DNA of 64,000 bases, taken from IMG/VR virus record IMGVR_UViG_3300021399_000109, positions 30,710-94,709 of that record, one strand, 5' to 3'. The DNA comes from a virus. Lineage: Duplodnaviria; Heunggongvirae; Uroviricota; Caudoviricetes. The notes beneath the pieces were generated by a model. The model was not told the DNA's origin and ran no database searches. It saw only the letters and a program-made list of their open reading frames with translations. Below are positions 31,542 to 64,000 of this stretch, piece by piece. The number at the start of each line of letters is the position of its first letter. The stretch's first letter is position 1. The position numbers and the translations under genes are program-made.

Positions 31542-31575
31542 ATATATTACTCCTTTTTAATCCTTTTTTTTATTT

Positions 31576-33437: not shown

Positions 33438-33472
33438 TTTATTTTTTATTTATTTATATTTATAAATAATTA

Positions 33473-36615: not shown

Positions 36616-36628
36616 AAAGTAATACTCC

Positions 36629-37819: not shown

Positions 37820-37823
37820 AATT

Positions 37824-39826: not shown

Positions 39827-39845
39827 TTAATTTATTTACCTTTCT

Positions 39846-40151: not shown

Positions 40152-40156
40152 AATTA

Positions 40157-40447
40157 TTAACCATCCCTTCCATAACGACCAAAAGCTACCATTCTATCTC
40201 CAGAGGGAGTAGTAAAGTGTTCCTCATAAGTTTCAAGATAACCCCAACTTTCTTCAAAAAAATCCTCGTAAGTCTGATTATCTTCATTCCATCCATTAAC
40301 AGAATTTTTAGTAAATTCATCATTCCAATAATCATAATAAATTTCGCCTTTTTTCCAAGCATCAAATTCCTCTTCAGTACAAATACAAAGTGAATGTACA
40401 GAAGAACTATTGGTTTCAAACACATTAAATCTAATATTTTTTTTCAT
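40157..40447 (-). CDS. NSSS-motif protein C (short type)
   Basis: MKKNIRFNVFETNSSSVHSLCIC...FTTPSGDRMVAF. Confidence 0.8.
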   Translation of the reverse strand: MKKNIRFNVFETNSSSVHSLCICTEEEFDAWKKGEIYYDYWNDEFTKNSVNGWNEDNQTYEDFFEESWGYLETYEEHFTTPSGDRMVAFGRYGRDG

Positions 40448-40469
40448 ATTTATTTTCTCCTTAATTTAA

Positions 40470-40970
40470 TTAATCTGAATTTGTTTCAAGTGCTATATTT
40501 TTATTAAAAATAAATTCAACTACTTTTTTAGGATTATACAAATCAACAAGACAATCATCCAAATATTCAGGATAAGTCTGATGGTCAAATCCTATCCCTC
40601 TTTTACCTCTTTTAGGATATACAGGAACAATATCTGTACATAAAATACTTGGAGAAAATTTATTAATATAAAAAATAATTGCGTCTTTTATATCTTGCCA
40701 GTAATAATTACAATCTTTATTTACAAATCCTTTTATGTTTTCTCCAAAATAACACCATAAAGAAGTTAATATATAAGAGATTTTCTCTTTTTGACTAGAA
40801 TAAATTTTGTGTTCTCTTCCAAAATATCCAAGGGGAATTTTAATTACCCCATCTTTATTTATTTGAAGTTCTTCAAAATTAGGTTCTGACAATTCTTGAT
40901 TCAAAAGTACAAGACTGTGTATTGAAGAAGAATTAGTTTCAAATATACTATTCCTAATATTAGTTTTCAT
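40470..40970 (-). CDS. NSSS-motif protein B (long type)
   Basis: MKTNIRNSIFETNSSSIHSL...GFDHQT. Confidence 0.8.
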   Translation of the reverse strand: MKTNIRNSIFETNSSSIHSLVLLNQELSEPNFEELQINKDGVIKIPLGYFGREHKIYSSQKEKISYILTSLWCYFGENIKGFVNKDCNYYWQDIKDAIIFYINKFSPSILCTDIVPVYPKRGKRGIGFDHQTYPEYLDDCLVDLYNPKKVVEFIFNKNIALETNSD

Positions 40971-40996
40971 TTTTTTTTCTCCTATTATATATGTTA

Positions 40997-41164
40997 CTAC
41001 GTTATAGATTCAATAGTATCCATATTATAAATTCCAACCCAACGTCCATCTTTAAGTATGATAAAAGACTTCCTATCATAATAATAATCTGTAAATTCAT
41101 TACCTGACCATTTATCTTCTCTTCCATCTTTAAAAACAATATGAATCGTATTATTATCTCTCAT
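40997..41164 (-). CDS. Small hypothetical protein (55 aa, MRDNNTIHIVFKDGRE...)
   Basis: Hand-translated; GAGGAG RBS. Confidence 0.65.
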   Translation of the reverse strand: MRDNNTIHIVFKDGREDKWSGNEFTDYYYDRKSFIILKDGRWVGIYNMDTIESIT

Positions 41165-41177
41165 TTTTATACTCCTC

Positions 41178-41957
41178 TTAGTCCTCAGTTTTTATAGAAA
41201 TATTTTCTCTTTGATTATAATAGTCTGTTAATTCTTCTTCGCTTTCATTTCCAGTTAAAAAACGAGGGAATATTTCTGTAATATCATCCACGTTAATAAT
41301 TCGATGCTTATATTGCTTTTTAAATTCACAATACTCATCTCCATCAATAACCACCCAATATTTTCTATTAGTAAGAAATACTTCAAGAGGAATATTATAT
41401 TTAGTGAGAAAATTAAGAAGAAGCCCCATACTTTGATGGTCTACTCCACCAGTTTTATAGTAATCAAATTCTCTACAGGTAAAATGCTGTCTCTCTTCAC
41501 TATCCCAAGCAATACCCGTACATCCCCAATTCTCTAAATCTTCTTCATCGTCCCAAATTTTATCGCTAATATAACCAAATATTTTTCCGTCAAAATCTCT
41601 TACATATTCAGTTCGTGTGCCTGTATCAAATTTAAATCTTTTACATTCAGGAATATATTTACAAGCAATTCTTTCCAGTTCGTTAAAATATTTATCTACT
41701 GTCTCTTGTTTTACATAAACTCCACAAAGAGATGCAATGGCATAACGCATTTTATCATTAAAAGTACATAAAATACTATAAGGACTTCTACCAAACTCAA
41801 GGTCATTATCCCAAAAATACCATTCACCATTTTTATTTATATATATATCTTCATGAAATTCTTCAGGAGTATACATTCCTGTTGTCTTACTTGTTACAAT
41901 AGAGTGCATAGAAGAACTATTACTTTCAAAACAGTTCATTCGAATTTGTGTTTTCAT
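41178..41957 (-). CDS. NSSS-motif protein A (long type)
   Basis: MKTQIRMNCFESNSSSMHSI...GVDHQS. Confidence 0.8.
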   Translation of the reverse strand: MKTQIRMNCFESNSSSMHSIVTSKTTGMYTPEEFHEDIYINKNGEWYFWDNDLEFGRSPYSILCTFNDKMRYAIASLCGVYVKQETVDKYFNELERIACKYIPECKRFKFDTGTRTEYVRDFDGKIFGYISDKIWDDEEDLENWGCTGIAWDSEERQHFTCREFDYYKTGGVDHQSMGLLLNFLTKYNIPLEVFLTNRKYWVVIDGDEYCEFKKQYKHRIINVDDITEIFPRFLTGNESEEELTDYYNQRENISIKTED

Positions 41958-42121
41958 TTTTTTATCTCCTTTTTATTTGTTTTAATAATTAATAATCGTT
42001 TCTATATTTATCTGATAATTTTAAAGCGAATGGTAAAATAATTAATAATATTCCAATAATTCCTAATGCAACATCCATAATAACCTCCTTTGTTATATTT
42101 AACTGTTTTTTAACTATATAT

Positions 42122-42150
42122 AGAATAACACATTTCCCCCTATTTGTCAA
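42122..42150 (-). promoter_or_regulatory. Sigma-A-type promoter heading the NSSS/radical SAM/IscS/RNAP operon
   Basis: TTGACA-17-TATTCT. Confidence 0.7.
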
Positions 42151-42491
42151 GTCTTTTTTTCATTAATATTCCAATCTATAGCCTGACCACAGTCACAATA
42201 TTTTAATTTATGAAAAAATATAGAAGAATATTTATTTTGTGTTCCGAAATATTTATTGCAAGCAGGACAATAATATTCATAATTTACATCTGTGACAATC
42301 TTAATAGGTTTAGTTGGAGTCAATCTTTTTTTTATGTCTCTAATTGTATATATACTATTATTAATTATAATTTTACTATCATCATTTATAATATCACTCA
42401 TATATCTTTTATACCCATCTGTAAAACCATCTGTATATCCTAATTTATATTGAGTAAAATCTTTTGTATCTTTAATATTCACATTATCCAT
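42147..42491 (-). CDS. Zn-ribbon hypothetical protein
   Basis: YYCPAC...YCDCGQAIDW. Confidence 0.6.
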   Translation of the reverse strand: MDNVNIKDTKDFTQYKLGYTDGFTDGYKRYMSDIINDDSKIIINNSIYTIRDIKKRLTPTKPIKIVTDVNYEYYCPACNKYFGTQNKYSSIFFHKLKYCDCGQAIDWNINEKKT

Positions 42492-42616
42492 TTTCTATCC
42501 TTTCATTATTAAATTGTAAATATAACAACTACAATCATAACTATTACAAAAATTATTGGGGGTAAAATTTCCAAAAAGAATATTAATATATCTTCCATTA
42601 TATTTTTATCTCCTTA

Positions 42617-43003
42617 TTATTCTAATCCCTGTCTCCAATCATATAAATGTCCTTCTTTATCAAAATAGAAAGTCCAATCTCCAATCCATACTTCACCTGT
42701 TGCCATTTGACCATACCTCGCATCTACCATCTCTTGTGAATAAAAATAATAAGTTTCGCCATCAATTGTATGCCAACCAACTAGCATGTCTGCTTCAGAC
42801 CAACCACCATTATTAATGTAACAAAAACGTGCATCACCTTCTTGAACCCAAGCATAAACCTGTTCAGTATCTCCATCAGTATAATCTTCATATTCTTCGT
42901 AATCATAATCTGGAGCATCATAATCTGAAGCATATACATTTATAGATGGAATAAACATAATTAATATAAAAACGCTTAATAAAGATATTATTACTTTTTT
43001 CAT
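42617..43003 (-). CDS. Secreted protein with cell-wall (choline)-binding repeats
   Basis: Signal peptide MKKVIISLLSVFILIMF...VYA; GWHTIDGETYYF and GEVWIGDWTFYFDKEG repeats. Confidence 0.75.
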   Translation of the reverse strand: MKKVIISLLSVFILIMFIPSINVYASDYDAPDYDYEEYEDYTDGDTEQVYAWVQEGDARFCYINNGGWSEADMLVGWHTIDGETYYFYSQEMVDARYGQMATGEVWIGDWTFYFDKEGHLYDWRQGLE

Positions 43004-43017
43004 TATACTCTCCTTTA

Positions 43018-43338
43018 TTATTCTCTTTCCATTAAATACATAGTTGCATTTTTCTTTTTAAAGCCACACTTTTCATATACATGAATTGCATGTTCATTAT
43101 CAGCTTCAACCCATAAACAATTAATTCCGTAATCTTTTATCAAAGATTCAACTACTTCAGTGCCATATCCAATGTTTTGATATGGTTCATATATATACAA
43201 TCTTGATAGCATTTTTCCATTGATTTCAATTTCTGCTTCGCCTACTTTTTTATTGTAATTATTAAATATTTCTAATTCTAAATATCTCTCATTCTTCTTG
43301 AATGTTACACTCATAATTTTTACTGCTCCTTTTTTCAC
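43018..43338 (-). CDS. GNAT acetyltransferase
   Basis: LYIYEPYQNIGYGT (motif A) and NEHAIHVYEKCGF (motif B). Confidence 0.85.
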   Translation of the reverse strand: MKKGAVKIMSVTFKKNERYLELEIFNNYNKKVGEAEIEINGKMLSRLYIYEPYQNIGYGTEVVESLIKDYGINCLWVEADNEHAIHVYEKCGFKKKNATMYLMERE

Positions 43339-44939
43339 TTTAAATAAAATTTATTTATTTTATTTATCCTATCATCTTTGCTTCGTTCCGTAAAAATTCA
43401 AGGGCTTTATTATGCGCTTCTTCTGCTTTTGTTAATGTACATCCATATTCTTTATGTAAAGCCATAATATAATCAGCTTTAGTATATCCTAACTGCACAG
43501 ATGGTAAGGCTTTAATAATTTCTGTACACCATACAGGATACTGTTTAAACGCATCAATTGCCATTTGTTTGCTTATTAACACATCCATTATTTTAATTCC
43601 TTTCCATAAACTTCCTTATGCCAAATTTTCTTAAATCTTTATCATTACATAATACTGTCTCTTTTGGTGTGTGCATATTATATCTATTACAATAGCCCCA
43701 TTCACTATTTACTCGTTTTTTCCACATTTTACAATCTTTACATTTTAATATTTTTGTTTTATCTTCTTGGTATGGCTGATGATGCCGAATCTTAATCCAC
43801 GGAATCAAGCCATGAATGAAATGTGCAAAAAAGTCGTGTAATGCATGGAACGCTACTTTCCAATTTTTAATTAGATGTTGCATATATGTCATTTATTATT
43901 ACCTCACTACTCACTATCTTTCTGATATGCAATAAACCAATCTACTAAATCTTCTGTACATTCATTACAGAACATCCTATCTTGTGCAAAATATTTCCCA
44001 TATGTTTTTTCGGTAGTTATTTTTATAGTATTTTTAAATGGTTTTTTCTGTATTTTTCCGCATCTGTCACATTTATAAAGAATCATTCTTATTTACCTCT
44101 TCTCAAATTCTTTCTGTAATGAGGACAATTAATAGCCCTATATCATTCAAACTTTTACACTTCTTAACTCTTCCAGAGAACACCACTTTCCTTCACGTTT
44201 CCCTGTATGCTCATTATATAAATAAACAAATAATCTATCTGGTTTCTCATTGTCATTTATTGTGTCATTTAGATAATTGTCTTTTTCACCCAAATAAAAC
44301 CCATTTATTACTTTATGCGGTAGTGTGTATAAATTATCCATCTTTCTCTCCATTATCTTTTAATCTTTTGTCCACAATATGGGCAATATTCATAAAATGC
44401 TTTTTTTGGTAATTCTTCTCCACAATAACCACATGGAGTAATTACTCGTCCGTCAATACCCATTTCTGGAGATAATAATTTCATTGGTATCTGTTTTTCC
44501 AATGCTTCAATTGCTATATCTATTGCTTGCACAAAATCATCAAAACTTTTCTTGTCTACACGAGGTGGATTTAACCAACGTAAAATATTAATTGCATTTT
44601 CATTTGTCATCTTTATTTATCTCCTTCCAACTGTAGTAAATAAAATTATAATTTTAATTATTTTTGTTTATTCTCTTTAGTTTTATATCCAAAACAAAAT
44701 CCGAATATAAATGCTACAATTATCCAGACAATTGTGAATATATCAGCCATTCTGTTCACCACCTTCCACTAATTCAAGCATATCAAACGTTTTGGAAATT
44801 AATTCCATTGATACATATTGTAATTCTTCTATCGCTTTGTTTTTTACTTGAGAATCTATGTTTTCTAACACTCCTTGTGCGTATCCTATTTTTCTCTGAC
44901 TGATACTCAAACTATTTATTATATCAATTTGTCTTTCTG

Positions 44940-45140
44940 TCATTCCTGTCCACCTACTCTCCTATTCCATGCTTGAGATGCCAATAACACAGCATCCGAA
45001 TAATTCCCACTGTTATATAACATCGTTCTTGCTCCACATTTTTTATATCTTACTTCTGCTGATGCAGAAAAAAGTATACCACTGAACAAAACTGCTTTTC
45101 CACCACAAAACGGACAAGGTTTTAATTCTACTTTTTCCAT
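44940..45140 (-). CDS. Lar-like restriction alleviation protein
   Basis: LKPCPFCGGKA...AWNRR. Confidence 0.65.
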   Translation of the reverse strand: MEKVELKPCPFCGGKAVLFSGILFSASAEVRYKKCGARTMLYNSGNYSDAVLLASQAWNRRVGGQE

Positions 45141-52085: not shown

Positions 52086-52430
52086 TTATTCATTGTTTAA
52101 TCTTCCTCCCCATTGTATTGACCTTGTATTCCATTTATCAATAACTTTTAACATAACTTCTTCTACTTCAGAAAAGTGACAAATGTCAGGTGAAGTAATA
52201 ACTAAATGTGCAATTTTTGCCACATACCTACAATCAGGACAATAAACTGAAAAACTTATTTGGTCTTTATTGCCACCCATTTGTGTAACTTCTACTTTTG
52301 TTGTAGGTGATTGTCCGCAAAAAGGACAGGGTTCTAATGTTTTTTCTTTTTCAGCTATCATACTCTTCCTCCTCTTCGTCCTCTTCCCAATCCCAATCTT
52401 CTTCTCTTTCAAGGTCTGTATTTTTATCAT
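52086..52430 (-). CDS. Lar-like Zn protein
   Basis: LEPCPFCGQ...YCPDC...KWNTR. Confidence 0.6.
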   Translation of the reverse strand: MIKIQTLKEKKIGIGKRTKRRKSMIAEKEKTLEPCPFCGQSPTTKVEVTQMGGNKDQISFSVYCPDCRYVAKIAHLVITSPDICHFSEVEEVMLKVIDKWNTRSIQWGGRLNNE

Positions 52431-52626: not shown

Positions 52627-52866
52627 TTATTCTTCTTCGTCTTCATCTTTATCTCTAATACTGAATATCTGTCCAGTACCATCTCTAAATATTGTAATAT
52701 CTAAAGCATTAACAGGAGGTTTAGGTGCATGTCCCATACGAAAGGGGTATAATGCGCAAGTAGTAACTGCACATTCTTTTATTTCACTTGTTTGTCCACA
52801 TGCACATTGTAAACATTTAGCCCTTATAGCTTTCATAGCTGTTAATTTTTTGAAAGGTTTATTCAT
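52627..52866 (-). CDS. Cys-rich small protein
   Basis: KAIRAKCLQCACG...C....CALYPFRMG. Confidence 0.65.
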   Translation of the reverse strand: MNKPFKKLTAMKAIRAKCLQCACGQTSEIKECAVTTCALYPFRMGHAPKPPVNALDITIFRDGTGQIFSIRDKDEDEEE

Positions 52867-53785
52867 ACTTTCTCCTTATAAAATAATATCTTTTTATTTT
52901 ATTATATCTATCTAAACATTCTTCTAACCATTTTGTTACATTTTGAGGATGTGCGCATCTTTTCCCCCAATATATACAAGCAGATAGGAAATCTTTATTA
53001 AATAATGGGTCATCTTCTTCATTAGAATAAATACAATTTACTATTCGTCCTGTCTCAGTAGTATAATTTATATATACTGTATTTTTATCAGAATCAAATA
53101 CAGGATTCATATCTTCTTTGCCACCTGCCATAAAACAAACCATTAAAATAGAATAATTATAAACATTATTAATTAAAATACTATTGTCAACAGGTTTGCC
53201 AATAAAAAAATTATGGTAATTTTTTTTATTATCGTAAAAATTTATAATTTCGTTATTTCTTATAGTAAGAACAGAACCGTCAGAATATCTATATATATAA
53301 TCTATATATTCACATGTATTTATATAATTTATATATGAATTATTAAGTTTATATTCACCTTCTAATGATAAACATACAGGTAGTTTTATTTCTTCTTGTA
53401 TAATATACATATTTCCACGAAGAATATGTTTTTTAAAACTATCCTCACAAATTGTATAATATTCATATGGATTTGATTCTTTATAAATAATTTTTACTTC
53501 TCTTTCTTTATCCCAATAACTCTTATAAATATTAGATACAATTTTCATTTTACTATCAAAAGAATTAGAAGAACAACAAAGTGCTTGAGATTTTATTTCA
53601 TATGTCTCACTATTTGGATTTTTTAAAAAGGCTTTAAGGATTTCTTTAACAGTTGTATCTGCTATTGGTTCAAAAGGATTTGATATTTTATCTAATCTTT
53701 TACTTATTTTTATAGCTGTCATTTTTGAAATTTCTTCAATATCTTTACTAAACATTATACCTTGGTAATATTTTTTATTAGGCAT
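52859..53785 (-). CDS. Hypothetical protein
   Basis: 308 aa ORF with RBS; no motif recognised. Confidence 0.6.
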   Translation of the reverse strand: MPNKKYYQGIMFSKDIEEISKMTAIKISKRLDKISNPFEPIADTTVKEILKAFLKNPNSETYEIKSQALCCSSNSFDSKMKIVSNIYKSYWDKEREVKIIYKESNPYEYYTICEDSFKKHILRGNMYIIQEEIKLPVCLSLEGEYKLNNSYINYINTCEYIDYIYRYSDGSVLTIRNNEIINFYDNKKNYHNFFIGKPVDNSILINNVYNYSILMVCFMAGGKEDMNPVFDSDKNTVYINYTTETGRIVNCIYSNEEDDPLFNKDFLSACIYWGKRCAHPQNVTKWLEECLDRYNKIKRYYFIRRKYE

Positions 53786-53991: not shown

Positions 53992-54192
53992 TTATACCTC
54001 TATCTTATATCTTCTAAATATATCATTAATAGTACATATACTAATATTTTTACTATTAATTGGAATTGAAACTGTACTGGTATCTTTTTTATAAATAACA
54101 TGACTTCCAGAAGTACGAATCTGTTTATAGCCATTATTTTTCATAATTTGTTTTATTTCTCTCTTATTATAATATTTCATTTTTCTTTCCAA
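53992..54192 (-). CDS. hicA: HicA-family mRNA interferase
   Basis: EIKQIMKNNGY..IRTSGSHVIYKK...VSIP (dsRBD-like, GSH catalytic His). Confidence 0.8.
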   Translation of the reverse strand: MERKMKYYNKREIKQIMKNNGYKQIRTSGSHVIYKKDTSTVSIPINSKNISICTINDIFRRYKIEV

Positions 54193-55305: not shown

Positions 55306-55629
55306 TTATTTTAAATTATAATAAGTATCATAGTTATCTGGTTCAAAGGCTATCTCTTCATTTTCAGTTATAATTGAATCTTCATATTTTTTCACAAGTG
55401 ATTCTTCATATAATATATCTGCTATATCTTGTAATAAACAGTAGCCATCACATTCTTCTCCATCATATTTTACTGTTTCAGTTAATATGTCTAAAACATA
55501 ATGGGAATCTATTTGTTTATGAAGTAAATTAAAACATACTTTTAATAAGTAAGTTTTCCGACTTTCTACTGTAGAGTATTCAGGATTAATATTATTTGAA
55601 TTATTATAAATTACGTTCATTTTAATCAA
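55306..55629 (-). CDS. Hypothetical protein, first gene of the leftward arm
   Basis: 107 aa ORF with AGGAG RBS. Confidence 0.55.
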   Translation of the reverse strand: MIKMNVIYNNSNNINPEYSTVESRKTYLLKVCFNLLHKQIDSHYVLDILTETVKYDGEECDGYCLLQDIADILYEESLVKKYEDSIITENEEIAFEPDNYDTYYNLK

Positions 55630-55698
55630 TCTCCTTTTTTTTATTTTTTTAGTCGTTAAAAACTATTTTTTTTAAGTAATATTTTAAATGTCATTTTA

Positions 55699-55727
55699 AT
55701 AATAGCATAAAAAATAAGAGGTGTCAA
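55699..55727 (-). promoter_or_regulatory. Sigma-A-type promoter starting the leftward arm
   Basis: TTGACA-17-TATTAT with TG extension. Confidence 0.75.
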
Positions 55728-55840
55728 GGGGGGAATTTAAAAAAATATGTACCCCCCTGTTCCTGTTTTTCCTGTTCTTTCCTATTAATATATTATTAGT
55801 ATATTATTAGTATATTATATTAAATTATCATATTAATTAA

Positions 55841-55879
55841 TGTGGATAATGTGGATAGAGTGGATAATTTTGTGGATAA
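55841..55879. promoter_or_regulatory. Cluster of four DnaA-box-like 9-mers (origin candidate)
   Basis: TGTGGATAA (55841), TGTGGATAG (55850), AGTGGATAA (55859) and TGTGGATAA (55871); two are perfect reverse complements of TTATCCACA; AT-rich tract adjacent. Confidence 0.7.
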
Positions 55880-56034
55880 CATAAATAAAATATTTAATAT
55901 TAAATTATAAATAAAATTGTGTTTTGGGAGAAATGACGATAAAAGTAGCGATAATAAGGGATAATAAGAAGATAATAATTAAATAGGTAATTAAATAGGT
56001 AAAAACGTGGTTGAAATTATGTGGAATTATGGTT

Positions 56035-56063
56035 AGGATGTAGTCAGGATGTAGTCAGGATGT
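56035..56063 (+). repeat. 11-bp tandem repeat AGGATGTAGTC x2 plus partial third copy
   Basis: Read directly; other short tandem duplications flank it. Confidence 0.85.
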
Positions 56064-56252
56064 GTGGATGAAGTTCGTGCGGTGCGAGCCGATTTTCGGG
56101 TCTGCTCCATGGTTAAAAGTAGCCCTCCGATGTGAAAACAAACTATAATTTGTTGTTGCAATCCATAGGGAACGGATGTATATTTGAGTTGTGGAAAACA
56201 ATTTCCCGAAAAACAATACACAAACAGATGTTCGAAAAGGAGGAACAAAACA

Positions 56253-57149
56253 ATGTCAAGGAAAAATGCAAAGTGTACAAGGTGTGGTGTTATCATGGTA
56301 GCGGCTTCAATGGTAGCTACAGGATGCGCAAATAGGGGAGTTAACAAACGGTCTTTTATGTGCCCTGAATGTGCAAAAACAAATGAACGGTACGGAGCAA
56401 GGAACAATAAAGAAGTTGGTGGAGTTGAAAACGGTTTGCGCTATGGTATCGAGTTCGAATCAACTGCATCAACTGAATACTTCAGAAACATGATGTTTCG
56501 ATACGATTATATCGCCACTCATGACGGCTCTCTTAACAGTACAGGAGAGCGGCGGTATACAGTGGGTCGGAACGGCTGGTACACTGAATCATCCTGCGAA
56601 TATGTCAGTGCAACTAACAAGGGTTTAAAGCGATTTGCTAAGCAGTTCCTTGAAATTGAGAAATGCCACAACGAGGGACATGTTGAGTGGGACGATTCTT
56701 GTGGTACACATTGCCACATCTCTATCAACAACATGGAGAATGGTGAGATGAGTATGATTCGGGCCTATTACAATTCGCTATTCATGCCTTTACAGGCTGT
56801 AATGACTGCTAACCCTGTAAAGACTGAAGAGTTCTTTGGCCGCTATTTCTCATACTCCTTTGCTCGTGAAATCACGGAAAATACAAGAATGCGTGAAGAA
56901 GACCATGACGACCGTTACGCATGGATTAACGCCGTTCACAATAGCAATATTGAATTCCGTTTAAACAAGTTCCGCACGGCTGACCAAATGCTGACTTGTA
57001 TCAAATTTGAAACATGGGTTGTTAAGACCATTCTTAACAACTTCACAAGTAAATACAATAGCATCCCTCGTACGGAGCGCAAACAATTAGCAGTGAAAAC
57101 GGCAAACAAACTTGCCAAAAAGTTAGAATCTATCTACGCTGAAATGTAA
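56253..57149 (+). CDS. Putative amidoligase (COOH-NH2 ligase type 2) with N-terminal Zn finger
   Basis: AGGAGG RBS before ATG 56253; CTRC...CPEC; YGIEFE, HDGSL, DDSCGTHCHI, RYAWIN and IEFR motifs. Confidence 0.8.
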   Translation: MSRKNAKCTRCGVIMVAASMVATGCANRGVNKRSFMCPECAKTNERYGARNNKEVGGVENGLRYGIEFESTASTEYFRNMMFRYDYIATHDGSLNSTGERRYTVGRNGWYTESSCEYVSATNKGLKRFAKQFLEIEKCHNEGHVEWDDSCGTHCHISINNMENGEMSMIRAYYNSLFMPLQAVMTANPVKTEEFFGRYFSYSFAREITENTRMREEDHDDRYAWINAVHNSNIEFRLNKFRTADQMLTCIKFETWVVKTILNNFTSKYNSIPRTERKQLAVKTANKLAKKLESIYAEM

Positions 57150-57157
57150 CATTTTCG

Positions 57158-57194
57158 GGAATGGTTTCCAGTTGGAAACCATTCCTTTTTTTTT
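57158..57194 (+). terminator. Rho-independent terminator
   Basis: GGAATGGTTTCC-AGTT-GGAAACCATTCC plus T9. Confidence 0.9.
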
Positions 57195-57851
57195 GCCCTT
57201 CTATCCAATAATTGTTTTTAACAACTAAAATTTTGCTTTTCTCGTTTCCCTTTTTTTCAAGTTGTTAAAAACAATAAATAATCCTTAATTGTTTTCAACA
57301 ACTAAAATTTTGCAATCCCATGGTATCAACCTATAGTTTTCAACAACTAACTTTTACCCGTCCTTTTTTCAAGTTGTTAAAAACAATTATTTTCTCCTAC
57401 GTTTTCAAGTTGTTAAAAACAATTGGCAATCCTAAATTGTTTTTAACAACTAAAATTTTGCAATTCCCTTTTACCAGTTGTTAAAAACAATAATTAATCC
57501 TATTTCCATGTACTCCCCTTTTTTTAAGTTGTTAAAAACAATGTTTCCCTATGCGTCATTTTCAAGTTGTTGAAAACAATAATCAATCCTATTATTTTCA
57601 AGTTGTCAAAAACAATTGGCAATTCGAAAAAAGACAAGTTGTTAAAAACAAAATTCCGTTTTCTGAATTGTTAAAAACAATCTTAATAATTTTCAAGTTG
57701 TCGAAAACAATTAAGCCCGATTCAAATTTTCAAGTTGTTAAAAACAATGTTTTATTCCTTCAGTTGTTAAAAACATTCTTTTATCCGTTAACTGTTAAAA
57801 ACTATTATATTAATTGTCAAAAACTTTATATTGCCTATGTTCAAAAAGTCA

Positions 57852-58158
57852 GTTGTTCAAAACTATTTTTCTGTTTTTCAGTTGTCAAAAACATCATTTT
57901 AATTTTTCAAGTTGTCAAAAACTTTTAACAATTATCTCAATTGTTAAAAACTATTCTAATATTTCTCAAGTTGTCAAAAACTTTTACATTTTTCTTTAAT
58001 TGTTAAAAACTATCCATATATTCCGTTAATTGTTAAAAACATTTAATAATCATTTCAATTGTTAAAAACTATCTTAATATTCTGATAATTGTTAAAAACT
58101 ATTAACAATTATCTTAATTGTTAAAAACATTCAAAGATATTAATCAGTTGTTAAAAAC
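57852..58158 (+). repeat. Phased direct-repeat array: 11 motif copies at alternating 29/30-bp spacing
   Basis: Starts at 57852, 57881, 57911, 57940, 57970, 57999, 58029, 58058, 58088, 58117 and 58147; spacers differ in sequence. Confidence 0.9.
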
Positions 58159-58712
58159 TATCTGTTTATTGATTAGTTTTTAACAACTAACCTTTTATAT
58201 AATTGTTTTTAACAACATTTAATATTATTTATATTTTATCAATTGTTAAAAACATTCATTAATTAACATAGTTTTTAACAACTGGATAAATCATAGTTAA
58301 TTGTTAAAAACTATCTATTATTTTTCAAGTTGTTAAAAACAATTAAAGATTATTAATAGTTTTTAACAACTATATTTTTACCTATTCACTATTATACATG
58401 ATATATAACATATACTTTATATATAATATCTATTCTATATATAATCTATATTCCATATAGATTATATATTCCATATAGAATATCTATCAACAATATAACG
58501 GTTTTCAAGTTGTTAAAAACAATAATCAATCCTAAACTGTTTTTAACAACTTTGTTCTCTTCTCTGCCCTTCTATCTTCCAATAATGGGAACCATAACGC
58601 AAACAAAAAAATAAGTTGTTAAAAACAAAAAACACTCCTGACACTCCGGCAACTTGTTTCTTCCTATATAAGGAATTAAAAAAATCTTTTTTCAAAAAAT
58701 CAAAAAAATGTG

Positions 58713-58741
58713 TTGACGGTTCTTTTATAGTGTAGTATTGT
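58713..58741 (+). promoter_or_regulatory. Cassette 1 promoter
   Basis: A-tract UP element, TTGACG-17-TATTGT. Confidence 0.7.
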
Positions 58742-58787
58742 TAACTCAACCGAAAAACATTTTTTTATTTCATAGGAGGTCTTACTC

Positions 58788-59078
58788 ATGAAAAAAGCAA
58801 ACGCAACTCTTGCAACTCTTGACAATGGTTTCTATTTTGTCCCCATTGCGGAGGGTCTTCTTGCCTATGTAATGTGTACAGATGGGCTTAAATGTTTCAC
58901 TACCAACGAAAACCCGATTGAGATTGAGGGTTTAGCATATGAAAACGCTATGGAGTACTGGGACGCTCTCAATAATAACACTTTAGAGATGGTAGAACAT
59001 ACAAAAAAAGAAGCAAAAGAAATTATCAGTAGAGAATTAAATGGTCGCAAAATTTACGAAGTTTTCCTTGTCGATTAA
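58788..59078 (+). CDS. Cassette 1 early protein (96 aa)
   Basis: AGGAGG RBS; terminator 59088-59121. Confidence 0.85.
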   Translation: MKKANATLATLDNGFYFVPIAEGLLAYVMCTDGLKCFTTNENPIEIEGLAYENAMEYWDALNNNTLEMVEHTKKEAKEIISRELNGRKIYEVFLVD

Positions 59079-59610
59079 CACAAGGGAACAGGGAACATGA
59101 AAATGTTCCCTGTTTTTTTTTATGCCTATAGGAAAATTGTTTTTAACAACTTAAAAAACAGAAACGGAACCATAAAAAAATAAAGTTGTTAAAAACAATT
59201 AATAATCCAAAATTATTTTTAACAACTGTAAAAATATAAAAATATAAAAATATAATTTTTAACAACTGAAAAATAAAAAAGAAAAATCAGTTGTTAAAAA
59301 TAATAGAAATAATTCCTATTAAAGCAATATGTTTAACATACTTTATAATAATAGTTTTTAACAACTAAAAATCAATCCATACAGGAGAACAAGAATAATT
59401 GTTTTTAACAACTAAAAAATTCCTACGTCCTGCAAGGCAAATAATATTTCCTGCAAGCGAAACAATAAAATTAAGTTGTTAAAAACAATTGCCCGAACAA
59501 GGGAAACCGAACAAGGGAAAATTAAATTGTTAAAAACAATTATTTTCATTCAAGCGAAATAAAAAATCAAGTTGTTAAAAACAAATACCCAAAACAAAAT
59601 AAAAAAAGTG

Positions 59611-59639
59611 TTGACTTAACCAAAAAAAGGGAGTATTCT
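59611..59639 (+). promoter_or_regulatory. Cassette 2 promoter
   Basis: TTGACT-17-TATTCT. Confidence 0.75.
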
Positions 59640-59684
59640 ATAACCATAAACAAATACCGCACCAATACAGGACAGGAGGATAAC

Positions 59685-60023
59685 ATGGTCATTAAAGTTA
59701 AAAGCTGGTTTTATCAGCAGGAACAGACAAAAGCAGGCAGATATAACTTTACTTTAAAATGGGATACAGTGATTAAAAATACAGGAACAGTTAACCCTGA
59801 GACCCGCTCAAAATGGAAGGAAGTCGGGAACTGTTTTTATGGCAAAGTGGTTAAGGAAACAGAGAAGGCAATACAGGTTGAGCTGTTTTACTGGAACCTT
59901 AACAAGAGCCGTAATTATCGCTATTTAACCGATTTACCGCTTGAAAAAGATAAGCGGTGGAAAACATGGATACCCAAATCTGTTTTACTGGATGAGGGTA
60001 TGCCGAAATATTTTCCCAATTAA
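59685..60023 (+). CDS. Cassette 2 early protein (112 aa)
   Basis: AGGAGG RBS; ETEKAIQVEL...WIPKS; terminator 60025-60052. Confidence 0.85.
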   Translation: MVIKVKSWFYQQEQTKAGRYNFTLKWDTVIKNTGTVNPETRSKWKEVGNCFYGKVVKETEKAIQVELFYWNLNKSRNYRYLTDLPLEKDKRWKTWIPKSVLLDEGMPKYFPN

Positions 60024-60256
60024 TAAAAAAAGCGGAATTTTCCGCTTTTTTTATTTTGTCCCTAATTTTAAGTTGTTAAAAACAATCACAAAAACAATTG
60101 TTTTTAACAATTGTTTTTTTCTCTATAAAATTTAAGTTGTTAAAAACAAAAAGGAATCAACAATAGTTTTTAACAACTAAAAAAATTCTTACCGTTTAAC
60201 ATTTTCAAGTTGTTAAAAACTTTAAAAAAAATTTTTTTATTTTTTTTAAAAAGGGA

Positions 60257-60285
60257 TTGACTTTCCAAAAAAGATAAGATATACT
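60257..60285 (+). promoter_or_regulatory. Cassette 3 promoter
   Basis: TTGACT-17-TATACT. Confidence 0.8.
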
Positions 60286-60333
60286 TAACACATCAAGCGA
60301 ACAACAAATATTTTTTTACAGGAGGATAAAATA

Positions 60334-60546
60334 ATGACAATTTACACGGAAGAGAATGGCAACATCTATAACGAGAATCATGAGGAAGTCTGGGAAGGCT
60401 TCAAAGAGGGGGATGTTTTACTCCTTGAAAATATGCCTTTTGACCTGTGGGATGAATCCACATGGTCATTTATTCACGCAACAGGCGTTGCAATTTATAC
60501 AGGGAGGGGGTGGAGTAATCAGTACGAAAACGAAAACATTGCTTAA
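60334..60546 (+). CDS. Cassette 3 early protein (70 aa, acidic)
   Basis: AGGAGG RBS; terminator AAAGTGCC-GAAA-GGCACTTT 60549-60574. Confidence 0.85.
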   Translation: MTIYTEENGNIYNENHEEVWEGFKEGDVLLLENMPFDLWDESTWSFIHATGVAIYTGRGWSNQYENENIA

Positions 60547-60760
60547 ATAAAAAAGTGCCGAAAGGCACTTTTTTATTTTTTTTTGTTTCTTTAAAGTTTT
60601 TAACAACTAAAAAAATACAAAAAGAAAAATAAAGTTGTTAAAAACAATCAAACGCAAATAAAAAAAATCAGTTGTTAAAAACAATTAGCAATCCTAAATT
60701 ATTTTTAACAACTGTAAAAATATATAAAAAAACAAAGTTGTCGAAAACAATAAAGAATCC

Positions 60761-60820
60761 TTAATAGTTTTTAACAACTGAAAAATTGAAAAAATTTTTT
60801 CAGTTGTTAAAAACTATTAA
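60761..60820. repeat. Perfect 25-bp inverted repeat formed by two motif copies
   Basis: TTAATAGTTTTTAACAACTGAAAAA / TTTTTCAGTTGTTAAAAACTATTAA with 10-nt loop. Confidence 0.9.
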
Positions 60821-60855
60821 GTCCCAATTTCCAGAAAAAAAATTTAAAAAAATAG

Positions 60856-60884
60856 TTGCATTATCTAAAATATTCTGTTATGCT
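60856..60884 (+). promoter_or_regulatory. Cassette 4 promoter
   Basis: TTGCAT-17-TATGCT with TG extension. Confidence 0.7.
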
Positions 60885-60928
60885 ATATACAACTTAAAAC
60901 ACCGCACCAAATACAGGAGGATGATATT

Positions 60929-61201
60929 ATGAAGAACCTTATTTGTTTTGATTTATTTAGTCGTGGTTTTGTTCCTAAAGTTGATATAGAGGGAACAGTT
61001 TCCGAAAATCTGTTTGTTTATAAAAAAGGTAGTATCTGCAATTTCACTGAAGTTACAGTTTGCGAGTGTAGCCCTGAAAAAGTCGTGGTTGTTATCCATA
61101 ACGAATACTACGATGGAGAAACAGACAGAGAAGAAACAAAGTTCTATAAAATGCGTCCCGAAGAAATGAAAGATTTTTTTGACAAACATTATATAAGATA
61201 A
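60929..61201 (+). CDS. Cassette 4 early protein (90 aa)
   Basis: AGGAGG RBS; terminator AAAGTGCC-AAAA-GGCACTTT near 61200-61228. Confidence 0.85.
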   Translation: MKNLICFDLFSRGFVPKVDIEGTVSENLFVYKKGSICNFTEVTVCECSPEKVVVVIHNEYYDGETDREETKFYKMRPEEMKDFFDKHYIR

Positions 61202-61502
61202 AAGTGCCAAAAGGCACTTTTATTTTTTTATATACTTTTTTAAAGTTTTTAACAACTGAAAAAAATATATAAAAAAAATCAGTTGTTAAAAACAATTAAT
61301 AATCAATCAATAAAAATAGTTTTTAACAACAACAAAAATATTAACCAATAAATCAGAAAAGAAAAGTTTTTAACAACTGAAAAATTATAAAAAATCAGTT
61401 GTTAAAAACAAAAATAAATAACCAGATAACTAAGAGGGAAAGTTTTTAACAACTGAAAAAAAATATCCGAAAAAATTTTTTAAAAAAAATTCAAAAAAAC
61501 AC

Positions 61503-61530
61503 TTGCAATTTAAAATCAATCTGCTATAAT
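61503..61530 (+). promoter_or_regulatory. Cassette 5 promoter
   Basis: TTGCAA-16-TATAAT with TG extension. Confidence 0.75.
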
Positions 61531-61579
61531 AAAGACATCAGCAAACAACACAACACATTTTTTTACAGGAGGTCACACA

Positions 61580-61816
61580 ATGACAAAATACACACAGAAG
61601 GCACTTCGAGAAATGGTTAGGAATAATGTAGCCGTAAACATTACCAATGGCACGAACGAAACCAGAAAAGAAATCGAAAAAAAAGAAGGGTATTTAACCC
61701 AAATCGGTTATGCTTGCGGTATTTACGGTTGCAATGGAATGCTCTTTAAGGGGCATAACACCAATGAATTGTATGCCGTAACAGACAGAACAATGGCTAT
61801 TTACATCTTCGGATGA
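61580..61816 (+). CDS. Cassette 5 early protein (78 aa)
   Basis: AGGAGG RBS; GYACGIYGCNG; terminator ATGAGGGA-GCAA-TCCCTCAT 61818-61847. Confidence 0.85.
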   Translation: MTKYTQKALREMVRNNVAVNITNGTNETRKEIEKKEGYLTQIGYACGIYGCNGMLFKGHNTNELYAVTDRTMAIYIFG

Positions 61817-62115
61817 TAAAAATGAGGGAGCAATCCCTCATTTTTTTATTTCTATATTCCCTTAAAGTTTTTAACAACTAAAAAAATATAAAGGGAAAAA
61901 TAAAGTTGTTAAAAACAATTAAAAAAAGAAAAGTTTTTAACAACTGAAAAAAATAAAATTAGTTGTTAAAAACAATAAATAATCAATCAACAAAAATAGT
62001 TTTTAACAACTGAAAAACAATAACTAAAAAAATCAGTTGTCAAAAACAATAAAAATCTATAATAGTTTTTAACAACTTTAGAAAAAATTTTTTAAAAAAA
62101 AATAAAAAAAATATA

Positions 62116-62144
62116 TTGACTTTTTAAAAAAATCATATTATGAT
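62116..62144 (+). promoter_or_regulatory. Cassette 6 promoter
   Basis: TTGACT-17-TATGAT. Confidence 0.8.
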
Positions 62145-62188
62145 TAATACAACAACAAACAAGCCACCAATCAAAGGAGAATAGTATT

Positions 62189-62365
62189 ATGGCAAGAACA
62201 GCAAAGGAATATAGCGAAATCTTACGGTCTGTAATAACAATGAGTGTTCAAGAAATCTTCGCAAATCCCAATTATGAGACAAACGATTACTTACAGGGAT
62301 ATGCCTCGGGATTGCTTGAAGCAATCGACAAAATTAATAAAAGTCAGTTTTTAGTAGAAGATTAA
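62189..62365 (+). CDS. Cassette 6 early protein (58 aa, MARTAKEYSEILRSV...)
   Basis: Hand-translated, below track cutoff; AAAGGAG RBS; terminator 62373-62404. Confidence 0.8.
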   Translation: MARTAKEYSEILRSVITMSVQEIFANPNYETNDYLQGYASGLLEAIDKINKSQFLVED

Positions 62366-62599
62366 AACTGATAAAAACAGGGGCTGAAAAGTCCCTGTTT
62401 TTTTATATCTATCTTTTTTTAGTTGTTAAAAACAATAAGCAATCAATCATTATTTTTAACAACTAAAAAATTGTATTTTTTCAAATTGTTAAAAACAATA
62501 AAAATATAATATAGTTTTTAACAACTAAAAACATAATTATATTTTCCAGTTGTTAAAAACTATAATTAATAATTGGGATAAAAAAAATAAAAAAAATAC

Positions 62600-62628
62600 T
62601 TGACAATAAAAATATAAACCATTATAAT
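62600..62628 (+). promoter_or_regulatory. Cassette 7 promoter
   Basis: Perfect TTGACA-17-TATAAT. Confidence 0.85.
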
Positions 62629-62674
62629 TAAGGTACAATTAATTAGTTGCAAATAATTGCGGAGGGCAAAAAAA

Positions 62675-63082
62675 ATGACTATTAAAGAAAATGAAAATTT
62701 TAATAATATTTCACTTTATCCCCTTAATATAAATGAAAAAAATTTGAAAAAGGCAGGTAAGTCTTACCATATGAACAACCGAAATAACAGGTTTAAAAAT
62801 GTTTTGGAAATTGAGAGAGAAAAACTAAAAATTGACAAAAGTTTCTTGGTTGATAAAGGGCATAAAAACGGTCAGGAAGTCCACGTTGTAACAACAAACG
62901 GCATTATTTTTATCTATAACTTTATGAAATTATTTTCTTGTTCGCAAAATGCACTTGTTACAGTTTTAATAGCAAGACCTAATCAGGTGACAAGATTATA
63001 TAACGCTTGCAATCTCACACCAGACAAAGAAATTATTAATAAATGCTTTGAACATGTAAAGCAAGGATTGAATAATTGTTAA
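62675..63082 (+). CDS. Cassette 7 early protein (135 aa)
   Basis: GGAGG RBS before ATG 62675; VDKGH..G.EVH and VTVLIARPNQ; terminator 63088-63118. Confidence 0.8.
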   Translation: MTIKENENFNNISLYPLNINEKNLKKAGKSYHMNNRNNRFKNVLEIEREKLKIDKSFLVDKGHKNGQEVHVVTTNGIIFIYNFMKLFSCSQNALVTVLIARPNQVTRLYNACNLTPDKEIINKCFEHVKQGLNNC

Positions 63083-63329
63083 AAGGGAAACAGGGATTTA
63101 AATCCCTGTTTCTTTTTTAATTTTAAGGGAAACATAGTTTTTAACAACTAAAAAAATAAAATTTAAGTTGTTAAAAACAATAAACAATCCAAAATTGTTT
63201 TTAACAACTTAAAAAAAAATAAAAAAATATCAGTTGTTAAAAACAATTAAACACGAAACAAAATTTTAATTGTTAAAAACAATAAATTAATAAATCAAAA
63301 ATTTTTTTATAATTTAAATAAAAAATAGC

Positions 63330-63358
63330 TTGACAATTATATAAAAAAAGGTTATCAT
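63330..63358 (+). promoter_or_regulatory. Cassette 8 promoter
   Basis: TTGACA-17-TATCAT. Confidence 0.8.
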
Positions 63359-63407
63359 TAAGATACAAAAACAAAGCAAACAATCAACCAAAAAAGGAGA
63401 TTTAATT

Positions 63408-63698
63408 ATGAGCAGAACATGGACACAGGACGAAATTAGAGTGCTTATACAGACCAATGATAAGGTTTTGTATGGGGCTTTAAAAAAGCTTTACGCTTGC
63501 CAGACAGCAGAAGAGCAAGCTACAAGTACAACAAATGTACAGAATGGGACAGGGTTTAACGGAGTTGATGCTCCTATTCTGACAAGTTTTGCACAGTTTT
63601 TAGAACGTACTGGATTTTTAACTCCCAGACAGAAAGCACTTGCCAGAAAGAAGTTAAAAAAATATAATAGGCAGTTGACAGCATTAGCCAACGCCTAA
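63408..63698 (+). CDS. Cassette 8 early protein (96 aa)
   Basis: AAAGGAG RBS; QTAEEQ...NGTGFNGVDA...KKYNRQL; terminator 63698-63734. Confidence 0.85.
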   Translation: MSRTWTQDEIRVLIQTNDKVLYGALKKLYACQTAEEQATSTTNVQNGTGFNGVDAPILTSFAQFLERTGFLTPRQKALARKKLKKYNRQLTALANA

Positions 63699-63901
63699 AA
63701 AAGAAAAGCGGATTTTTCCGCTTTTCTTTTTTTTATAAAACTTTTCAAGTTGTTAAAAACAATAAATCCTTAAACGGAAACAATTATTTTTTTACAGTTG
63801 TTAAAAACAATAGTAAAAAAATAGTTTTTAACAACTAATTTTTTAAAAAATAGTTTTTAACAACTGTAAAAAAAATATTTAAAAAAAAATAAAATAATTA
63901 C

Positions 63902-63930
63902 TTGACATATAAAAAGAAATCTATTAAAAT
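63902..63930 (+). promoter_or_regulatory. Cassette 9 promoter (ORF starts 63988 and runs off window)
   Basis: TTGACA-17-TAAAAT, followed by AAAGGAAAG and ATG. Confidence 0.75.
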
Positions 63931-64000
63931 ACAATTACACCAGTAAACAAAAACTTATTTTAATTAAAAGGAAAGAAGAAAAAAACATGAAAATGAGCAA

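Follow-up and report, generated by a model that had tools for sequence, protein, structure and literature searches.

A repeated 16-bp site with operator-like placement in the early arm of an uncultivated SPbeta-related phage

The phage and its rightward arm

The single virus record IMGVR_UViG_3300021399_000109 holds the 158,709-bp genome (29% G+C; rated complete by CheckV) of an uncultivated phage of gut/rumen origin, a relative of the Bacillus phage SPbeta. We refer to this genome as G000, and to related contigs, genomes, and proteins by codes beginning with L, G, and P, respectively. Our analysis starts from a 64,000-nt stretch of the record (positions 30,710 to 94,709; hereafter, the window, whose coordinates are used unless stated otherwise), toward the end of which a short motif recurs throughout the gaps between the small genes of an early arm. 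Judged by the portal protein, the nearest cultured relatives are large Firmicutes siphoviruses that are only 25 to 30% identical: Brevibacillus phage Sundance, Bacillus phage PBC2, Lactococcus phage 949, and the SPbeta-like Mammaliicoccus phages. The gene order of G000 matches that of SPbeta (portal, terminase, exonuclease, HU homologue, YonO-like large protein, and then a divergent arm, which in both phages consists of small genes with many terminators), and the YonG and YonJ families, together with a weak RdRP match, were found in relatives. A DNA search of cultured phage genomes returned no relative of the arm.

The rightward arm opens with a plus-strand gene (56253 to 57149), recognized from its homologues, an AlphaFold2 (AF2) model, and Foldseek comparisons, for a zinc-ribbon/amidoligase-like protein of 298 amino acids (aa). 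Its intrinsic terminator lies on the same strand (57157 to 57186) and is followed by an array free of open reading frames (ORFs; 57211 to 58626), which holds 38 copies of the motif with at most one mismatch (29 on the plus strand and 9 on the minus strand), plus double variants; the mechanical ORFs at 57551 to 57928 and 57814 to 57999 have no ribosome-binding site. The arm as a whole comprises about 27 monocistronic or very short units, and 48% of it is noncoding. Each unit is laid out as a near-consensus sigma-A promoter (TTGACA-17-TATAAT), a C/A-rich leader, an AGGAGG sequence, a small ORF, and an intrinsic terminator, with terminator stems varying between cassettes.

Within the window, plus-strand cassettes of this kind alternate with clusters of motif copies. 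Cassette 1 (58713 to 59114) carries the promoter TTGACG-17-TATTGT, an AGGAGG sequence, a 96-aa ORFan (58788 to 59078), and a terminator, and is followed by 10 copies in the orientations -+--+--+++ (59115 to 59610). Cassette 2 (59611 to 60056; promoter, 112-aa ORFan at 59685 to 60023, and terminator) precedes five copies ordered +-+-+ (60057 to 60256). Six copies each follow cassette 3 (60257 to 60578; promoter TTGACT-17-TATACT, 70-aa ORFan at 60334 to 60546, and terminator) and cassette 4 (60851 to 61226; promoter, 90-aa ORFan at 60929 to 61201, and terminator), at 60579 to 60850 and 61227 to 61502, respectively. Cassette 5 (61503 to 61845), with the promoter TTGCAA-16-TATAAT, a 78-aa ORFan (61580 to 61816), and a terminator, leads into seven strictly alternating copies (-+-+-+-; 61846 to 62115). 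Cassette 6 (62116 to 62402; promoter, acidic 58-aa ORFan at 62189 to 62365, and terminator) and cassette 7 (62600 to 63115; consensus promoter TTGACA-17-TATAAT, ORF of ~135 aa at 62677 to 63082, and terminator) are each followed by five copies (62403 to 62599 and 63116 to 63329), and cassette 8 (63330 to 63735; promoter, 96-aa ORFan at 63408 to 63698, and terminator) is followed by four (++--; 63736 to 63901). The window closes on the promoter (TTGACA-17-TAAAAT) and ATG (63987) of a further plus-strand gene (63902 to 64000), which encodes a 68-aa winged-helix-like protein and ends at genome position 94902, 193 bases past the end of the window (L001:697-903).

Pfam assigned no family to 28 of 30 arm proteins, the exceptions being an AIG2/GGACT-like protein and a DUF932 protein, and among 58 arm and neighboring proteins, HU was the sole DNA-binding domain that it found. 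An Atlas feature search with the 96-aa protein matched only unnamed viral clusters, and a related-locus search with two arm proteins as queries gave no match.

A 16-bp site in the gaps of the arm

Exact matches to the motif TTGTTAAAAAC number 70 in the window, where shuffled sequence would give 0.23 (largest shuffle count, 2), and the degenerate form TTGTYRAAAAC is matched 81 times, against 0.59 expected. The original prediction, which was made from the letters of the window, had counted about 88 copies of a 12-bp motif at 57211 to 63866, and we recover the same number (86 copies with at most one mismatch and two TTGTCGAAAAC double variants), as well as the predicted enrichment over shuffled sequence. 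The length and limits of the element had to be redrawn: the full conserved unit is tttttNAGTTGTTAAAAACAAT, with 16 positions of 1 to 2 bits each and a T-rich 5′ flank, and the field does not end at 63866 but continues for about 10 kb past the end of the window. Genome-wide, a 17-kb arm (genome positions 87.9 to 104.9 kb) accounts for 134 copies with no more than one mismatch, which total about 4 kb, or 2.5% of the genome. The rest of the genome contains zero exact copies and 15 scattered one-mismatch matches. The first 57 kb of the window, in which a single near-match had been noticed, contains eight with one mismatch and none that is exact; these look like chance. The first leftward gene (55306 to 55629) has the near-match AGTCGTTAAAAACTA (55651 to 55664) in its 5′ leader, downstream of a TTGACA-17-TATTAT promoter; this copy breaks an otherwise invariant T and may be either a weak site or a chance match.

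The inner motif, TTGTT-AAA-AACAA, is a partial dyad (5-3-5) in which the G at position 0, the G at position 3, and the C at position 11 are as invariant as the A/T tracts. Copies are used in both orientations, are separated by unique spacers, and are never nearer to each other than about 26 to 29 bp, which suggests a binder footprint of similar size. Alternating orientation, as first described, holds for most gaps but not for the 1.4-kb array, which is mostly co-oriented and includes a strictly phased run with a 29/30-bp period and unique spacers (57853 to 58158). The array is broken at 58380 to 58500 by an AT-rich stretch with two occurrences of TATATTCCATATAGA, where several promoter-like hexamer pairs are also found on both strands.

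Placement of the copies follows the transcription units. All terminator-to-promoter gaps of at least 180 bp hold 2 to 10 copies, mainly alternating in orientation, whereas gaps shorter than 110 bp (inside small operons) hold none. The real cassette ORFs of the window are free of copies, as had been observed, and the two one-mismatch copies that fall inside ORFs (TTCTTAAAAAC) both lie past the end of the window. Across 45 cassettes from G000 and five relatives, the promoter-proximal copy is centered at -70 to -130 from the inferred start, with modes at -80/-90; its orientation is random, and it never overlaps the -35 or -10 element. In the G000 arm, the nearest copy typically precedes the inferred start by about 70 to 95 bp.

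A literature search for the motif string gave only unrelated papers, in line with the earlier remark that no described element has this sequence, and an Rfam search of 55500 to 64000 returned no family. A clustered regularly interspaced short palindromic repeat (CRISPR) reading is ruled out by the 16-nt repeat, the 13- to 14-nt spacers, and the presence of copies in both orientations. Repetitive extragenic palindromes and their mosaic elements (REP/BIME) are imperfect, hairpin-forming palindromes that are scattered over the chromosome in transcribed 3′ untranslated regions (UTRs). This class is ruled out as well: the site has only the 5-3-5 partial dyad, its copies lie downstream of terminators and are confined to one arm, and the long co-oriented arrays have little folding potential.

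Relatives with and without the site

At least six other metagenomic phages from unrelated samples (L186, L187, L188, L191, L192, and L107) keep the same layout and the extended consensus, along with its variants TTGTCAAAAAC and TTGTTGAAAAC, and the proteins that they share with G000 are only 42 to 62% identical to those of G000. In L107, the arm proteins are 42 to 56% identical, yet the exact 16-mer is kept, including a co-oriented array of about 20 copies that is located mid-arm. Five successive copies within this array (L107:3390-3590) share the variant GTTTTTAAAAACAAT, a G-to-T change in the left half, and could reflect a local subfamily of sites or homogenization. Among strain variants that can be aligned, identity is 90.7% for motif bases, versus 83.7% for other intergenic bases and 88.8% for ORFs.

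Homologues of the amidoligase-like protein reach down to 39% identity. In L186, L187, L188, L190, L191, and L192, its gene is followed by an ORF-free stretch of 0.6 to 1.7 kb and then by widely spaced single small genes; a seventh context, P0025 (for which there is no DNA), has the same gene spacing, and L189, a short contig, stops soon after the gene. Five of these phages (53 to 62% identity) carry the same motif in the gaps plus an array, at a density of up to 105 copies per 13 kb. Analogous arrays of other motifs, for which the original prediction had proposed a search in relatives, occur on two contigs. The gaps of L190, whose amidoligase-like protein is 39% identical, carry aaaaaaN5aTTTTYRAAAAt (33 copies, 28 of them intergenic, versus 1.6 expected), and L194, a Logan contig of 2,576 bp with an identical cassette layout, has 24 copies of aGTTG-N4-CAACt, versus 0.014 expected; the latter shares the aGTTG half-site with the G000 motif. 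The L190 region (L190:8300-20800) belongs to a more distant SPbeta-like phage with the same architecture, and the 68-aa family is absent from its sampled flank.

The motif is missing from several relatives of G000, one of them close. G001 (IMGVR_UViG_3300031760_004803), whose portal is 88% identical in amino acids and whose flanks are 86 to 95% identical in nucleotides, has neither the motif nor any hyper-repeated 11-mer; the same is true of the complete distant relatives G003 and G005 (portal identities of 54% and 44%), and the motif is also absent from G002. In place of the arm, G001 has 15.7 kb (positions 28505 to 44185) in which operons are densely packed and only two consensus promoters occur, a clean swap between similar flanks; the arm and its motif therefore constitute an exchangeable module rather than a family trait. 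The replacement operons encode large proteins (768, 642, 530, and 475 aa). Arms that do bear the motif are themselves fluid: cassette order differs in every relative, with the gene for the 68-aa protein standing first, fifth, seventh, or ninth, and strain variants differ by whole cassettes, with internal junctions no more than 32 bp from a motif copy.

Taken together, these conservation results argue for selection on the recognition sequence. The earlier proposal that protein binding, and not tandem duplication, maintains the copies is supported by a 16-mer that remains letter-perfect between unique spacers in arms whose proteins are 42 to 62% identical.

Among the matches listed in a metagenome motif-pair scan were strain variants of G000 (L070, L112, L169, and L097) at 75 to 90% nucleotide identity, as well as L107; most of the listed matches were isolated palindromes expected by chance or members of a repeat family in Ga0268261 that has no relation to the arm. 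In this family, L057, L059, L062, and ~40 other Ga0268261 contigs have the same 34-bp palindromic motif-pair match near the contig end, an unrelated repeat dispersed in the genome of an organism from the sample. The corresponding scan of IMG/VR gave only four unrelated single matches. Screening of 185,579 species genomes turned up no prophage-like motif triplet; the sole + - + triplet among them belongs to the Clostridiales metagenome-assembled genome (MAG) UMGS1908: here, five alternating motif-like copies lie between the gyrA stop and a terminator, upstream of hup (L118/L175:4630-4750). This is probably an unrelated REP-like hairpin cluster.

Candidate binding proteins

Family clustering covered the arm proteins of seven sampled arms, six of which bear TTGTTAAAAAC, and only two families occur in all six of the sufficiently sampled TTGTTAAAAAC arms: the amidoligase-like enzyme and the 68-aa protein. 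The 68-aa family is absent from G001, G002, G003, and G005, and is a lineage-restricted ORFan with 5 clusters among 1.84 billion representatives; a word-index search with the G000 protein returned near-identical copies only. The protein is basic (net charge of ~+5), and in L186 and L187, its gene forms the cassette that immediately follows the array. Its AF2 model has five helices, with a predicted local distance difference test (pLDDT) score of 92. The top matches in an Atlas shape search were the winged-helix HTH_24/IclR (template-modeling [TM] score of 0.58) and FtsK-gamma (TM of 0.51 to 0.54), and the VIA shape rows were mostly Myb, homeodomain, MarR, and Sso10a DNA binders at Z scores of 4 to 5; an Atlas feature search gave no usable match. 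For so small a helical domain, these DNA-binder-like shapes of the predicted model are suggestive only. In addition, a divergent member of the family (P0035; E value of 4e-11) is encoded on L194, adjoining the arrays of the variant motif, which represents a single apparent case of covariation between protein and site.

The binder is probably a dedicated protein encoded by the phage itself. This arm-encoded, basic, winged-helix-like 68-aa ORFan is the most likely candidate for the role, although we hold that identification tentatively and at somewhat less than an even chance.

HU, one of the binders suggested previously, is ruled out as the specific binder, being 92% identical in the motif-less G001. 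Another, the amidoligase-like protein, combines an N-terminal CxxC...CxxC zinc ribbon with an amidoligase (glutamine-synthetase-like) domain. Its AF2 model (pLDDT of 91) matched glutamine synthetases in Foldseek at a probability of 0.99, with a TM of only 0.32 to 0.37, and PF12224 (Amidoligase_2) was found on the homologue P0020, whereas the protein of the window itself falls below the Pfam threshold. Its gene is always first in this type of arm, in at least eight phages, and is absent from relatives without the arm. The protein may be a host-takeover ligase; we set it aside as a binder on account of its enzyme fold, although with its zinc ribbon it may yet be one.

The integrase family is represented by a single PF00589 protein of 317 aa, encoded 4.5 kb past the arm, which is Xer-like (best matches, XerA/XerC). 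With its catalytic R, HxxR, H, and Y all in place, and as a core gene in motif-less relatives, this recombinase was also set aside as the binder. The product of a 308-aa ORF (52859 to 53785), considered as an MrpR look-alike, found no support in a sequence search of the PDB and is conserved in G001. A phmmer search of all G000 ORFs with SPbeta YopR, YopP, and YopQ yielded no match at an E value of ≤1 (at the level of sequence only). A genome search of G000 found no HTH_3, ParB, resolvase/serine recombinase, or ParA family; PF02195, PF01656, and PF13614 had no match in the complete genome, with ParM and TubZ not searched for.

A possible regulon and its mode of action

What we observe directly is the sites, where they are placed, how well they are conserved, and how they co-occur and covary with the 68-aa family. 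We interpret the motif copies as operator-type sites of one dedicated phage-encoded regulator that would govern the ~27 early cassettes as a regulon, an interpretation to which we give about an even chance. It comes closest to one of the alternatives listed in the original prediction, that of a silencing or regulatory coat over strong promoters. That the 68-aa protein binds the sites, the sign of the regulation, and a buffering role for the large array are further steps that we infer.

With respect to sign, repression seems distinctly likelier than activation: the near-consensus promoters should need no help, and the gene of the candidate binder lies inside the regulon, which together make autogenous early shut-off the likelier outcome. 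Under such a scheme, the near-consensus sigma-A promoters would fire once the arm enters the cell, and the binder would build up, filling the ~40-site ORF-free array and the gap clusters first. Packed nucleoprotein arrays, with one protein unit per 29 to 30 bp, could then form from each terminator to a point ~30 to 50 bp upstream of the -35 element. Given that the sites end at this distance, repression would need a cooperative array acting on the UP-element region or on the polymerase; the arrays would silence the promoters jointly, either holding RNA polymerase in a trap or masking or bending the UP-element region, without occupying the core promoter, which is how p4 and p6 of phi29 operate. 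The gene-free array might serve as a nucleation center or, conversely, as a decoy that delays shut-off.

Several observations weigh against the operator interpretation or against the proposed binder. The sites never overlap the core promoter, which leaves simple steric repression unsupported, and the -80/-90 position would suit an activator too. Pfam had no match for the 68-aa protein, Foldseek searches of pdb and afdb with its model returned nothing significant, and the fold matches are all weak (Z of ≤5.5, a value often reached by chance in helical models). The covariation comes from one contig, L194, and the half-sites of the G000 motif are spaced 3 bp differently from those of L194, a discrepancy that sits poorly with a rigid dimer. 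Furthermore, the amidoligase-like gene co-occurs with the motif equally well, and two other families (the 58-aa protein of cassette 6 and the 96-aa protein of cassette 8) are present in five of the six motif-bearing arms; as such, the co-occurring families could simply be conserved members of the arm of one clade.

An extension of the operator scheme, which we consider rather unlikely, is a self-timing program of novel design in which the winged-helix protein would have to saturate the gene-free decoy array of ~40 high-affinity sites before it could shut the ~27 promoters all together, with the copy number of the array setting the length of the early phase. Under this design, a newly acquired gene would be wired automatically into the timer, each cassette bringing its own operators, and binding to entering DNA may also help ratchet the arm into the cell.

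Alternative explanations

One alternative casts the repeats as recombination substrates, which would turn the gaps into places for the gain, loss, and shuffling of cassettes by homologous recombination or by the Xer-like recombinase. The reordered cassettes, the junctions close to motif copies, the wholesale swap of the arm in G001, and the intact recombinase 4.5 kb past the arm are all in keeping with this possibility. However, homology alone would suffice for recombination, with no need for a letter-perfect 16-bp site between unique spacers across 42 to 62% protein divergence. It also leaves unexplained why 25 to 40 phased, co-oriented copies stand in the ORF-free array and why gaps hold 3 to 10 copies where one would do. 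Cassettes are all co-oriented despite sites in both orientations, no site-specific inversion was seen, site pairs lack the 6- to 8-bp crossover spacing of tyrosine-recombinase core sites, and the motif-less G001, G002, G003, and G005 also have the recombinase among their core genes. Recombination as the selected function therefore appears unlikely. As a side effect, which is how the corresponding suggestion of the original prediction survives, it is probably real: with cassette order shuffled and junctions lying within 32 bp of the motif, the repeats would also serve, probably incidentally, as recombination homology, and the shuffling of cassettes is probably a by-product.

We assign a similarly low likelihood to the arrays being sites for a host protein (e.g., a Spo0A-like or nucleoid protein) that is recruited to boost early promoters or is soaked up. 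A host protein is available earlier than anything made by the phage, -80/-90 is a classical activator position, and variation in the core is limited to the two positions whose change converts it to TGTCGAA, which we take to be the 0A-box consensus. The five-copy cluster between gyrA and hup in one Clostridiales MAG could be counted on the same side. Yet TGTTAAA, the core that predominates, does not contain the C-G of the 0A box, the motif in that MAG is only ~2.3-fold above control, its cluster lies in the different setting of a transcribed 3′ UTR, and it is the one + - + triplet carrier among all of the species genomes screened. Near-consensus promoters should, moreover, need no activator. 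The motif differs in L194 and L190, which have the same architecture, and is absent from G001, which fits phage-borne specificity better; the earlier idea of a sponge titrating a host regulator is disfavored on the same grounds, the motif changing along with the phage protein family.

Roles in genome mechanics (a centromere, iteron-based copy-number control, or control of packaging or DNA entry, after sopC/parC, P1 incA, or the T5 injection stop) have, in our estimation, a slimmer chance. The strict 29/30-bp co-oriented array with unique spacers resembles centromere and iteron arrays, and it lies 1.2 kb from a candidate replication origin. This candidate, at 55760/55790 to 56070, was recognized by reading the sequence at the point where the two arms diverge, which coincides with the cumulative GC-skew minimum. 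It comprises three AT-rich tatattattag repeats, four DnaA-box-like TGTGGATAA elements within 40 bp (55840 to 55880), and two occurrences of GGATGTAGTCA; it may be DnaA dependent, and it borders the motif field without being part of it. SPbeta starts packaging within the yonP/yonR interval (bioRxiv 10.1101/2021.11.22.469490), and because this interval is syntenic with the point of divergence, the packaging start of G000 may also lie near 55760 to 56070, making it plausible that the arm is the first DNA to enter the cell. On the other side, no ParB, ParA-type ATPase, or recognized Rep protein was found in the genome search, and the segregation half of the earlier segregation/injection suggestion is left without a ParA or ParB partner. 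An iteron origin would pair its repeats with an AT-rich unwinding element and a Rep initiator gene; AT-rich stretches (58380 to 58500 and 55790 to 55830) and the DnaA-box-like repeats are present, no Rep gene was recognized, and most copies are far away from such elements. Of the copies, 70% are dispersed over 17 kb, always between terminator and promoter, pointing to gene control. The array of L107 lies mid-arm instead of at the arm start, and closely related phages manage without an array.

Finally, a protein-independent DNA structure, in which bent or cruciform T-tract/A-tract units insulate transcription units or enhance promoters, is very improbable: each unit does combine a T run with an A5 run, and strong single-strand folding (z = -6.1) is seen for gaps that contain inverted copies, but the non-A/T positions are as invariant as the tracts, the co-oriented array folds little (z = -2.0), and the sister system of L194 uses a G/C-containing palindrome without A-tracts.

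Comparison with known systems

In SPbeta, the master repressor MrpR/SroF has as its operator a repeated element (SPBRE) that lies upstream of ~10 early promoters (PMC10516654; bioRxiv 10.1101/2025.11.27.690993). The G000 system resembles it in having a long asymmetric site that recurs between genes, ahead of numerous early promoters in the rightward arm, on a syntenic backbone, and in the concept of one phage regulator (here, a candidate) for all sites. It differs in density, with 134 sites distributed as 2 to 10 per gap plus a 38-copy array, as opposed to one site at each of ~10 promoters. It also differs in the proteins involved: phmmer found no homologue of MrpR (YopR/SroF), MrpR is a catalytically dead integrase fold whereas the integrase-family protein of G000 is catalytically intact, and the candidate binder of G000 is a 68-aa winged-helix-like protein. 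SPBRE/MrpR acts in maintaining the lysogeny of a temperate phage; in G000, the Xer-like recombinase is present, and a serine recombinase was not found in the genome search. We conclude that the G000 system is not a member of the SPBRE/MrpR system. (A k-mer inspection of SPbeta promoter regions revealed a shared AAAAAATATGTATA element, which is not established as SPBRE and was not used.)

The hyperplastic regions of T4-type phages reportedly contain promoter-early stem-loop (PeSL) cassettes, as described by Arbiol, Comeau, and Krisch in 2010. These, too, are small ORFans, each with its own early promoter and stem-loop, that are shuffled between relatives; however, the PeSL repeat is the promoter plus stem-loop, whereas that of G000 is a separate 16-bp site between terminator and promoter, with a gene-free array in addition. 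In the KorB-OB system of IncP plasmids and the omega heptad arrays of pSM19035, a small DNA-binding protein co-regulates a whole backbone through numerous scattered sites, which frequently precede promoters and work cooperatively or over a distance, as proposed here. Those systems have ~12 sites or short runs of heptads, with ParB-type or ribbon-helix-helix binders that also serve partition, and no ParB or ParA was found in G000.

The p6 and p4 proteins of phi29 and TF1 of SPO1 coat phased positions near early promoters of Bacillus phages, silencing them without an operator in the core promoter. However, p6 (phased at 24 bp) and TF1 have little sequence specificity and respond to the shape of the DNA or to modified bases, unlike the highly sequence-specific site of G000, and the HU homologue of G000 is 92% identical in a motif-less relative. 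Centromere and iteron arrays, such as sopC of F (43 bp, 12 times), parC of R1, and incA of P1, are phased arrays at a single locus with a cognate partition or Rep system. The phased tandem run of a short site at 57853 to 58158 recalls them, but the G000 copies are mostly dispersed and placed relative to promoters, and a partition or Rep partner was not found.

Overall, we rate the G000 arrays as the global operator regulon of a mobile element, which is of a known general kind. What is new is the retention of the same site and layout across divergent phages, with the module conserved in seven further ones, the swap of the module in G001, the two variant motifs, and a named candidate binder.

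Phage genomes are usually tightly packed, and here nearly half of a 17-kb arm is noncoding; given that at least eight uncultivated gut/rumen phages keep this design, it must pay for itself. If the operator interpretation is correct, the arrays would amount to a portable regulatory standard, under which cassettes of promoter, gene, terminator, and operators shuffle freely beneath one master switch. This would explain how dozens of host-takeover ORFans are co-regulated in large SPbeta-like phages and would extend the SPBRE/MrpR idea to a different binder and a far higher density of sites. Such arms also offer a natural test case for titration by decoy sites and for repression from far upstream, and their insulated strong cassettes, along with the pair of protein and operator, are possible parts for synthetic biology in Firmicutes.

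Leaders and neighboring genes

C/A-rich, nearly G-free 5′ leaders precede the cassette ORFs, as exemplified by caaacaacacaacac (58741 to 58787, 60286 to 60333, 61531 to 61579, and 62145 to 62188), and those of L194 are likewise (CAACAAGAAAACAACAC); they may represent a conserved unstructured leader or a translation enhancer. The leftward early region encodes a HicA-toxin-like protein (53992 to 54192) and two Lar-like (restriction alleviation) zinc-ribbon proteins (52086 to 52430 and 44940 to 45140). Directly beyond the rightward arm (L001:12821-16238; genome positions 106.8 to 110.2 kb) lie genes for a GmrSD-N-like protein, an SprT-like protein, and the intact Xer-like tyrosine recombinase, the last of which is only 51% identical in G001, while adjoining genes are ~90% identical.

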